This document shows, in pieces, positions 27,937 through 28,674 of a DNA stretch of 64,000 nucleotides. Position 1 is the first letter of the stretch; each line of letters opens with the position of its first letter. The DNA is from a phage: assembly GCA_024674815.1 (NCBI GenBank), contig GCA_024674815.1_4104.1; one strand, written 5' to 3'. The notes beneath the pieces were generated by a model. The model was not told the DNA's origin. It was given only the letters and a program-made list of their open reading frames with translations, and ran no database searches. The translations under genes were made by a program, and so were the position numbers.

Positions 27937-28674
27937 ATGTTACCTTTTGGAAGAATGGTTAAGTACGGGAATAAAATTGAATATAAGCCAGATGGTGAAC
28001 AATTAATCACGACAATAGGAACAACACAATTTACAGTTCCTGCTGGCGTTACCGAAATATCAGTATGTGTTATTTCGCCGGGTGGTCAACGTGGTGCTGG
28101 TGGCGGCTTATCGTGGCGTAATAATATTCCGGTTACTAGTGGTGAGTACTTAAGTGTTTCTCTTACACATCCCAACACTACTACAGCAGTTGAAAACGGT
28201 TTATATCGTGGAACTGAAAAACTATGTGTTAGCTTCACTGGTGAATATAGGGTTGGTGGACTAGGTGGGAAAGCTGCTAACGCTATTAATGATGGTGGTG
28301 GTAATGGGGGCAACGCTGGTGTAAGTGGTGGTGCAGTCATTGGTGGTGGTGCTGGTGGCTACACTGGTAAAGGTGGTAACGGAGATGCAATCACTGGTGA
28401 AAATGGTGCTGGCGGCGGCGGTGGTGGTGGTGCATTCTATAATACCTCGTTCATTGGTACGGGTGGTGGTACTGGTATCATTGTTCAAGGTGCTAATGGT
28501 ATTGGCGGTAGATACGATGGTTCATATAATGGTGGTGCTGGTAGTGGTGGTGCTGGTAAGATGTATGGTGGTGGTGGTAGTATATGGGATAATTTTTCTT
28601 ATACGGCTGCTGGTGGTGGTGCTGTGCGAATAATATGGGGACGTGGGAGATATTATCCTAACAATTCAGTCTAA
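27937..28674 (+). CDS. Gly-rich protein with MLPF N-terminal tag (paralog R7)
   Basis: MLPFGRMVKYGN then long Gly-rich tracts instead of RCC1 repeats. Confidence 0.65.
   Translation: MLPFGRMVKYGNKIEYKPDGEQLITTIGTTQFTVPAGVTEISVCVISPGGQRGAGGGLSWRNNIPVTSGEYLSVSLTHPNTTTAVENGLYRGTEKLCVSFTGEYRVGGLGGKAANAINDGGGNGGNAGVSGGAVIGGGAGGYTGKGGNGDAITGENGAGGGGGGGAFYNTSFIGTGGGTGIIVQGANGIGGRYDGSYNGGAGSGGAGKMYGGGGSIWDNFSYTAAGGGAVRIIWGRGRYYPNNSV

Follow-up and report, generated by a model that had tools for sequence, protein, structure and literature searches.

A shared twelve-residue N-terminal peptide on a glycine-rich protein and RCC1-like propellers of a jumbo coliphage: a putative virion-docking tag

The tagged glycine-rich protein

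The phage DNA considered here (64,000 nucleotides of contig GCA_024674815.1_4104.1, GenBank assembly GCA_024674815.1; hereafter the window) carries on its plus strand an array of 12 tag-bearing genes (20615..34692). According to the open reading frames (ORFs), N-termini and Pfam matches, ten of these encode intact RCC1-like propellers, one encodes a glycine-rich protein and the last is a split, decayed copy. The glycine-rich gene (27937..28674, +) codes for a protein of 245 amino acid residues and 24 kDa that begins with MLPFGRMVKYGN and continues into glycine-rich tracts. On balance we favor the reading that this 12-residue peptide is a virion-docking tag carrying interchangeable lectin-like heads, of which the glycine-rich protein is one. 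Related phages place the peptide on other folds that are found in their particles, and it most likely plugs such heads onto the virion.

The first-pass annotation of the sequence stated that this ORF starts with the same tag as the propeller family, and that long glycine-rich tracts take the place of RCC1 repeats. Both statements are borne out. The peptide MLPFGRMVKYGN (codons 1-12; 27937..27972, +) is common to the ten RCC1-like neighbors, and 11 consecutive genes (20615..33467, with corrected start codons) begin with MLPF[GAV]RM[VILMF][KNQD]YGN; positions M1, L2, P3, F4, R6, M7, Y10, G11 and N12 are at least 90% conserved among the array proteins. The 36-nt tag sequence occurs eight times within three mismatches between 23044 and 32333, while none is expected from 100 shuffles. 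Glycine makes up 29% of the whole protein and 39% of residues 101-245. The ten intact neighbors match RCC1/WD40_RLD Pfam profiles with E-values from 1e-9 to 1e-23 in hmmscan, whereas the glycine-rich ORF has no match to RCC1, RCC1_2 or WD40_RLD, nor to any Pfam family at E ≤ 1. The RCC1-like bodies have a mutual identity of just 19-28%, with a nearly invariant tag. The similarity of the glycine-rich gene to these neighbors, in DNA and in protein, stops exactly after codon 12. The term paralog, which had been applied to this gene, is thus appropriate for the 5' cassette and the first 12 codons and does not apply to the body.

Family and predicted fold of the glycine-rich body

Among 5.8 billion proteins searched, 197 homologues of the glycine-rich protein were found. 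An alignment of 55 sequences has invariant non-glycine positions, among them W234, G235 and P241, and the strict motifs VPxGVTSI, GGGLSWRNNIPVTPGE, NDGGGNGG, GGGAGGYxGNGG and GAVRIIWGxGRxFP. The copy in phage UE-S1 is 95% identical, with 13 substitutions that are mostly at non-glycine residues, 9 of the 13 lying between the glycine motifs. In distant homologues Pfam family PF21722 (Gly_rich_2) spans the whole body, and proteins P0037, P0038 and P0103 match profile positions 1-225. The comparison by hhalign of 21 Pfam-negative close relatives with 34 PF21722-positive proteins gave a probability of 100% and an E-value of 2.2e-58. At the level of profiles the body is a divergent member of Gly_rich_2. 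The family alignment has 228 columns covering query residues 12-245, and its beginning at residue 12, together with the similarity boundary at codon 12, supports the earlier proposal of a tag plus a variable head, in which bodies of unrelated kinds stand behind a single N-terminal module. An exhaustive profile search found 6,312 family clusters, 4,309 of them at E ≤ 1e-10; many members are proteins of 500-5,300 residues in which the domain is C-terminal or repeated.

The AlphaFold2 model of the glycine-rich protein has a predicted local distance difference test (pLDDT) score of 93 and a predicted template modeling score (pTM) of 0.88. Residues 1-10, within the tag, have pLDDT below 50 and are disordered in the model, and residues 11-20 have a mean of 70. 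The linker KIEYKPD (residues 13-19; 27973..27993, +), variable across the family, leads to the first strand at residue 20. Strands are found at residues 20-100 and 229-234. The N-terminal half of the body (residues 20-100; 27994..28236, +) is predicted to form a TNF-like beta-sandwich, and the glycine-rich region (residues 101-228; 28237..28620, +; 39% glycine) a lattice of extended polyglycine segments, or 'brush', which is confidently placed yet mostly without structure assigned by DSSP. The C-terminal strand AVRIIWG, in which residues 229-234 return to the sandwich, is followed by the tail RGRYYPNNSV and the stop codon (28621..28674, +).

The comparison with glycine-rich fibre-like domains that had been suggested on first reading gave a positive result. 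The body has profile-level homology to PF21722 proteins, and the confident model has the same predicted fold as the PF21722 heads gp24 of cyanophage Pam3 (PDB code 7YPX) and gp33 of mycobacteriophage Bxb1 (the 'tail wing brush', 9D93); this fold, in which glycine-rich motifs are framed by a beta-sandwich, is also shared with the glycine-rich domain (GRD) of ALK according to fold comparison. More distant likenesses of the PF21722 type are the gp38 adhesin of Salmonella phage S16 and the glycine-rich domain of ALK/LTK. Unlike PF21722 members, the window protein has neither a Pfam match of its own nor a sequence-level match to a solved structure; a search of solved structures with the family profile gave nothing meaningful, and the known structures are linked to it by fold comparison only. 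It is important to note that the solved relatives are all extracellular or located on the virion surface: the Pam3 fibre, the Bxb1 brush and spike, and the ALK ectodomain. Viral predicted structures with the same fold mostly bear the name 'glycine-rich domain-containing protein'.

The part of the Pam3 fibre that matches the present protein is described in the Pam3 paper as a TNF-like domain with a glycine-rich lattice, in which the stems are conserved and the variable distal tips, it was suggested, recognize the host. Brush or polyglycine-rich domains are seen as anti-receptors in other phages as well. The glycine content of 39% is the same as that reported for Pam3, and conserved glycine motifs are split by variable positions in the window protein; the 9 UE-S1 substitutions between these motifs are a bare hint of binding through the distal tips. 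The Pam3 fibre is docked to the baseplate by a separate N-terminal helical domain, a long one that anchors and trimerises gp24, and here it is replaced by the 12-residue peptide and a short linker.

A structural role of the tag in the propellers, as the closing ('velcro') strand, was considered and rejected. In the AlphaFold model of the RCC1-like product of gene 28747 (pLDDT 73) residues 1-20 have pLDDT values of 59-65 and the first blade strand begins at residue 22, so the tag is not a structural strand of the propeller; in addition, the same tag is disordered on a body that is not a propeller.

The tag in other phages and in virions

The tag is found in other jumbo phages on a wider range of bodies. 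In Pectobacterium phage CBB (genus Mimasvirus) the protein CBB_144 is a member of the glycine-rich family, falls in PHROG 4474 as does the window protein, and starts with MLPFSPLIVYGN. Its gene (KU574722.1, 8001-8765) stands alone between nrdD and nrdG, the genes of anaerobic ribonucleotide reductase, some 270 kb away from the rest of the tagged genes of this phage. Ten further CBB proteins (CBB_536, 537, 548-554 and one more) start with MLPF..(R)...Y[GA]N, giving 11 tagged proteins in all; 550, 552 and 554 are Kelch propellers, 548 and 551 have Laminin_G_3 domains, and the others are glycine-rich or without a Pfam family. The tag is rare outside such phages: an exact-pattern scan of 2.9 million viral contigs in IMG/VR found it in 7 only, of which 6 are 348-378 kb long and include 121Q, CBB and a contig of 358,663 bp. 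A metagenome scan gave about 50 tagged ORFs preceded by a ribosome-binding site against about 10 internal matches of the kind expected by chance. These ORFs include two glycine-rich bodies (L023:31 and L067:1883) and fusions of 667-690 residues that combine RCC1-like and Kelch propellers in one chain (L012 8416-6413 (-); L065 170 (-)). Taken over the 355-378 kb phage contigs, the same tag stands on Kelch, laminin-G-like, RCC1 plus Kelch, glycine-rich and Pfam-less bodies, which extends the tag-plus-variable-head arrangement well beyond the window.

The consensus across genera is M-L-P-F-x-[RIP]-[MLIV]-x-x-Y-[GA]-N. The DNA upstream of tagged genes in CBB and the 355-371 kb contigs is not conserved, and the codons of the tag vary synonymously (CCT/CCA/CCG/CCC, TTT/TTC, TAC/TAT, GGA/GGG/GGT, AAT/AAC). 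This indicates that selection acts on the peptide, and that the tag is a functional peptide rather than a relic of duplication. The mean identity of tags is 0.78 within genomes and 0.69 between them, a difference reached in 0 of 2,000 label permutations, although the genomes are related and their independence is overstated by such a test. The alleles ARMVK and VRMFD have been exchanged between orthologous bodies of UE-S1 and the window phage: genes 23044 and 26671 of the window and their counterparts in UE-S1 (L002 1894 and 5100) have bodies that are 94% and 90% identical and carry reciprocally swapped tags, MLPFARMVKYGN and MLPFVRMFDYGN, which indicates recombination right at the junction of tag and body. 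A metagenomic orthologue of the glycine-rich protein, 58% identical, and its RCC1 neighbor both read MIPFARIVKYGN.

Several tagged proteins are components of purified particles. CBB_144 was detected in CBB virions by tandem mass spectrometry (MS/MS) with 5 unique peptides and 34% coverage, and it is one of six structural proteins that the CBB paper lists as absent from GAP32. CBB_536, 537, 548, 549, 551, 552 and 553 are also in the virion table, which brings the number of tagged CBB virion proteins to eight. With these detections, and with tag alleles that recombine independently of the bodies, the modular arrangement is strengthened. The RCC1 paralogues gp003, 005, 006, 007, 009 and 010 of phAPEC6 were reported in its virion proteome (phAPEC6 paper), and the RCC1-like gp1 of GAP32 is a reported structural protein. 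The 'PE-PGRS family protein' of an Erwinia jumbo phage is a close fold match of the glycine-rich body, and one so named figures among virion proteins detected by liquid chromatography with MS/MS; the homologue of the Erwinia phage was not retrieved by tblastn with CBB_144 as the query.

In phAPEC6 (MK817115.1) the true glycine-rich ORF (244 residues, 7307/7325-8059) was left unannotated, and gp004 (101 residues) was annotated at 7716-8018 in a valine-rich wrong frame. The published virion proteome could therefore not have contained the glycine-rich protein.

Genomic setting and the 5' cassette

The 3-kb stretch around the glycine-rich gene has 98.5% DNA identity with Escherichia phage vB_EcoM_E9.1, and the 36 phage records that it matches are without exception jumbo coliphages of the Asteriusvirus type with genomes of about 350 kb, including PBECO4, 121Q and phAPEC6; by this similarity the window comes from an Asteriusvirus, a 350-kb coliphage like these three. 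The plus strand from 20.6 to 34.7 kb is a run of genes similar in size, flanked by small minus-strand ORFs, and the GC skew flips in step with the change of strand at the flanks. The glycine-rich gene is present in 18 of the 36 records, and PBECO4 has RCC1-like genes at that place. Since it is missing from about half of the Asteriusvirus records, the gene is accessory and dispensable.

A peak of GC content and GC skew at 28-29 kb raised the possibility of a foreign origin. This was rejected: the non-glycine codons have 34% GC compared with 32% in the neighbors, and the preference for GGT is common to both. The local GC peak is due to the glycine codons.

The glycine-rich gene lies between two copies of a 102-nt direct repeat that are 95% identical. 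The first (27872..27973, +) is its own 5' cassette, consisting of a terminator hairpin, an A/T-rich promoter-like box, a ribosome-binding site and the 36-nt tag, and the second (28682..28783, +) provides the same elements for the RCC1-like gene that follows (28747..29889). Six such cassettes align with a mean column identity of 87%. Within the first copy, the promoter/terminator scan located a hairpin resembling an intrinsic terminator, GCCAGTACAAAGTACTGGC with a T-tract (27872..27900, +), which ends the upstream RCC1-like gene. It is followed by the A/T-rich box GTATTAAATATAGTATAATGAATAA (27901..27925, +; TATAAT at 27914-27919), a presumed phage promoter made of invariant cassette columns that recurs before most genes of the array. 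The sigma-70 promoter scan did not call this box, and its promoter function is inferred. The sequence AAGGAGGGG (27924..27932, +), 4 nt 5' of the ATG, is the ribosome-binding site, and a further terminator-like hairpin was found 3' of the gene (28680..28702, +). With a terminator hairpin, a promoter-like box, a ribosome-binding site, the ORF and a second terminator, the glycine-rich gene appears to be a transcription unit of its own.

A proposed docking function and its alternatives

From these observations we infer that the glycine-rich protein is present in the virion, that the tag is an attachment element, and that the heads are external and bind structures of the host surface. In the model the glycine-rich protein consists of the flexible 12-residue peptide, a linker of about 7 residues and a compact TNF-like/polyglycine head. 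The peptide would fasten all of the lectin-like heads, which are small, to the particle at acceptor sites of a single kind, for which the most plausible candidates would be the hair-like fibres of capsid and tail sheath. Such fibres, so far unexplained, have been described on the capsid and tail sheath of phAPEC6, 121Q, CBB and fEgEco12. The virion would thereby display a mixed set of binding modules that could aid adsorption to the host surface. The repeated cassette may also give recombination a handle for the exchange of bodies and tag alleles; judging from the compared sequences, cassette recombination clearly occurs, and the glycine-rich body probably entered the array by it.

More tentatively, the proposal could be widened. 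MLPFxRMxxYGN might be the natural 'plug' of Rak2-like jumbo phages (Asteriusvirus, Mimasvirus and related phages of 355-371 kb), one acceptor, possibly the hairs, taking a dozen RCC1, Kelch, laminin-G-like and polyglycine heads as an evolvable, combinatorial adhesin repertoire whose genes lie apart from those of the tail fibres, so that the genes of these phages annotated for a decade as 'chromosome condensation' genes would code for surface binding modules. We consider this wider form somewhat less probable than its negation.

The principle of a docking peptide is already known. Short N-terminal docking peptides of 7-11 residues are present on secondary receptor-binding proteins of Klebsiella phages of the KP32, KP34, Menlow and PhiK64-1 groups and of K1E/K1-5/SP6-like phages (Latka et al. 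2019, PMC6872550), and such peptides have been validated experimentally (PMC13352976). The likeness lies in a very short conserved N-terminus, 12 residues in the present case, on differing virion proteins, with modules exchanged behind it. However, the peptides of Latka et al. are on trimeric beta-helix depolymerases or tailspikes from the tail-fibre cluster and dock on a T4gp10-like branching domain, while here the peptide is on small globular propellers and lectin-like or glycine-rich heads. A genome can have as many as a dozen of these, and their array is remote from the structural module, which is outside the window. The array corresponds to gp001-gp010 of phAPEC6, and the tail-fibre candidates named in the phAPEC6 paper are gp248, gp256 and gp314. 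The present case thus differs in the sequence of the peptide, in having globular bodies that are not enzymes, in how many of them there are and in their place away from fibre genes. The sequence MLPFxRMxxYGN is not reported in Latka et al. 2019 or in PMC13352976. A description of the tag was not found in open-access papers and preprints, which does not prove its absence.

Several points weigh against the docking proposal. The glycine-rich protein has no direct evidence in an Asteriusvirus virion, the mass spectrometric search of phAPEC6 being blind to an unannotated protein, and the gene itself is missing in about half of the Asteriusvirus records. Mass spectrometry of virions cannot tell surface proteins from internal ones. 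Classical fibres have a trimerisation stalk, of which the globular heads show no obvious sign. The structural statements rest wholly on predictions, and the polyglycine-II geometry is presumed. The similarity of tags within a genome could come from gene conversion alone. No acceptor protein is identified. In addition, GAP32, which the CBB authors suspect to be hairless, also has tagged proteins, and for this reason the hairs may not be the acceptor.

The main rival explanation, which we regard as unlikely, takes the tag for a T4-like capsid-targeting sequence. Diverse cargo would be brought by it into the prohead or an inner body and injected with the DNA, the bodies being host-directed effectors. 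The T4 IPI-III locus is a tandem array of fast-diverging bodies with a conserved N-terminus of about 10 residues. The present array has the same format, and the T4 proteins IPI, IPII, IPIII and Alt likewise combine such a tag with hypervariable tandem bodies and occur in particles, as the tagged proteins do in purified virions. An inner body is present in phAPEC6, for which the authors of the phAPEC6 paper put forward the RCC1-like proteins; in eukaryotes, Kelch and RCC1 propellers mediate protein interactions. However, a protease site like that of the T4 internal proteins is not conserved in the array proteins: the residue at position 9 is K, N, Q or D in the 11 copies of the window and E, Q, K, V or A in CBB, so that neither the cleavage-site Glu nor the T4-type L/I-x-E motif is kept. 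The array proteins (24-43 kDa) have a balanced charge and are near neutral, with isoelectric points (pI) of 5.6-8.8, and not basic. Their folds are binding folds of the extracellular type: the solved relatives of the glycine-rich body are extracellular or on the virion surface, Gly_rich_2 often stands as a distal module in proteins of great length, and laminin-G/ConA-like bodies are typical carbohydrate binders. Capsid targeting thus fits the format of the array and the virion data, and is disfavored by the cleavage motif, the charge and the folds.

An improbable alternative gives the shared N-terminus no function as a peptide. The 5' cassette would have been duplicated or homogenized by gene conversion, or its codons would serve the initiation of translation, and the glycine-rich gene would have been inserted between two cassettes by recombination. 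In its favor, the 65 nt upstream are as conserved in the window as the tag, the 95%-identical repeat flanks the glycine-rich body, and tag variants are genome-specific, with alleles moving between paralogues. However, in CBB and the 355-371 kb contigs M-L-P-F...Y-G-N is kept with synonymous changes despite unconserved upstream DNA, and CBB_144, alone between nrdD and nrdG, is still tagged. Moreover, the sole copy of the window with a decayed tag (MLPFGRIITSSK) belongs to a split and probably dead gene. A purely DNA-level explanation is contradicted by the data across genera.

We give similarly little credence to a partner of the tag outside the virion, such as a phage chaperone or a factor in assembly, a modifying enzyme or a system for export or localization, with only an indirect association of the tagged proteins with the particle. 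The peptide is disordered and exposed in the models, as would be expected of any recognition motif, and polyglycine heads can need such help: the fibre head of Pam3 gp24 requires a dedicated chaperone (Pam3 paper). However, a single chaperone or enzyme for five unrelated folds is difficult to imagine, the array has no candidate partner gene linked to it, and what the tagged proteins most economically have in common is their presence in virions.

That the glycine-rich ORF is a low-complexity artefact of a wrong frame, a possibility raised by the first-pass annotation, is already refuted: other frames are indeed open across the GGT-rich stretch, and one of them is annotated as a gene in phAPEC6, but the large conserved family has motifs with invariant non-glycine residues, the 58%-identical orthologue differs by 66, 66 and 130 changes at codon positions 1, 2 and 3, the fold prediction is confident, and the homologue CBB_144 was seen by MS/MS.

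The docking reading also bears on the names given to these genes. Array members have been called 'regulator of chromosome condensation' or 'DNA condensation protein', as late as 2026 in open-access papers and preprints, and the neighbors do match RCC1-repeat profiles. However, the label implies DNA compaction, while the proteins are near neutral and the tag is common to Kelch, laminin-G-like and fibre-tip-like bodies; unlike the RCC1-like paralogues so labelled, the glycine-rich member has no RCC1 repeats at all. A DNA-condensing role is unsupported, the pI range of 5.6-8.8 showing that the tagged proteins are not basic. Genes annotated as RCC1/DNA condensation or as hypothetical, one of them in a wrong frame, would be reassigned as virion-associated binding heads with one address peptide. 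This would offer a handle on the composition or cargo of the hair-like appendages and on their part in host attachment. If the 12-residue peptide suffices for incorporation, it could serve as a tag for display and host-range engineering of therapeutic jumbo phages, in the manner of the docking peptides of Klebsiella phages.

Additional observations

The last member of the array is split into an ORF of 78 residues (33528-33764, +) and an RCC1-like ORF of 298 residues (33796-34692, +). The first starts with MEDTMLPFGRIITSSK and has the decayed tag, which is without YGN; the second has no tag. This member is probably a pseudogene or the result of a frameshift.

The valine-rich ORF in an alternative frame (28325..28633, +) overlaps the glycine-rich gene, is spurious and is not part of the system; it is the one annotated as a gene in phAPEC6. 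Like the P/T-rich ORFs of the antisense strand, this ORF arises from GGT-rich codons read in other frames.

The protein P0002 (206 residues, from a 26.7-kb Logan contig) is an 80%-identical copy of the glycine-rich protein without the tag. It starts with MNKGG in the region equivalent to the ribosome-binding site and also has an internal deletion of a glycine-rich stretch. Either P0002 is a dead copy that occurs in nature or it arose as an artefact of assembly.

Two highly charged proteins are encoded elsewhere in the window, one of 425 residues (47079-48356, -) and one of 127 residues (48602-48985, -). Both were considered as acceptor or fibre genes near the array and were dropped, being charged and not fibre-like by eye. 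The phAPEC6 virion proteins gp035c (46.4 kDa) and gp037c (14.8 kDa) are of similar size and may correspond to them.

Glycine-rich homologues also occur in smaller phage contigs of about 120-150 kb, where they start with ML-E-[LM]-[LIM] (L003 8134-8799, 9176-10000 and 10001-10744; L084 10001-10717, 14060-15031 and 16829-17698). The cryo-electron microscopy paper on PhiTE does not mention a glycine-rich homologue in that related smaller phage. The same kind of start is common to unrelated neighbors in the L003 and L084 contigs, namely a weakly laminin-G-like protein and members of PHROG 3589, 'virion structural protein'. Such shared starts could reflect a parallel tag system in smaller myophages, or chance. 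The second glycine-rich paralogue of L003 (274 residues, 9176-10000) has no gene call in the source record, and the spacer before it (8800-9175) looks like a possible cluster of transfer RNA (tRNA) genes. The L003 glycine-rich genes lie directly upstream of two small membrane- or lipoprotein-like genes and the terminase-portal-capsid module.

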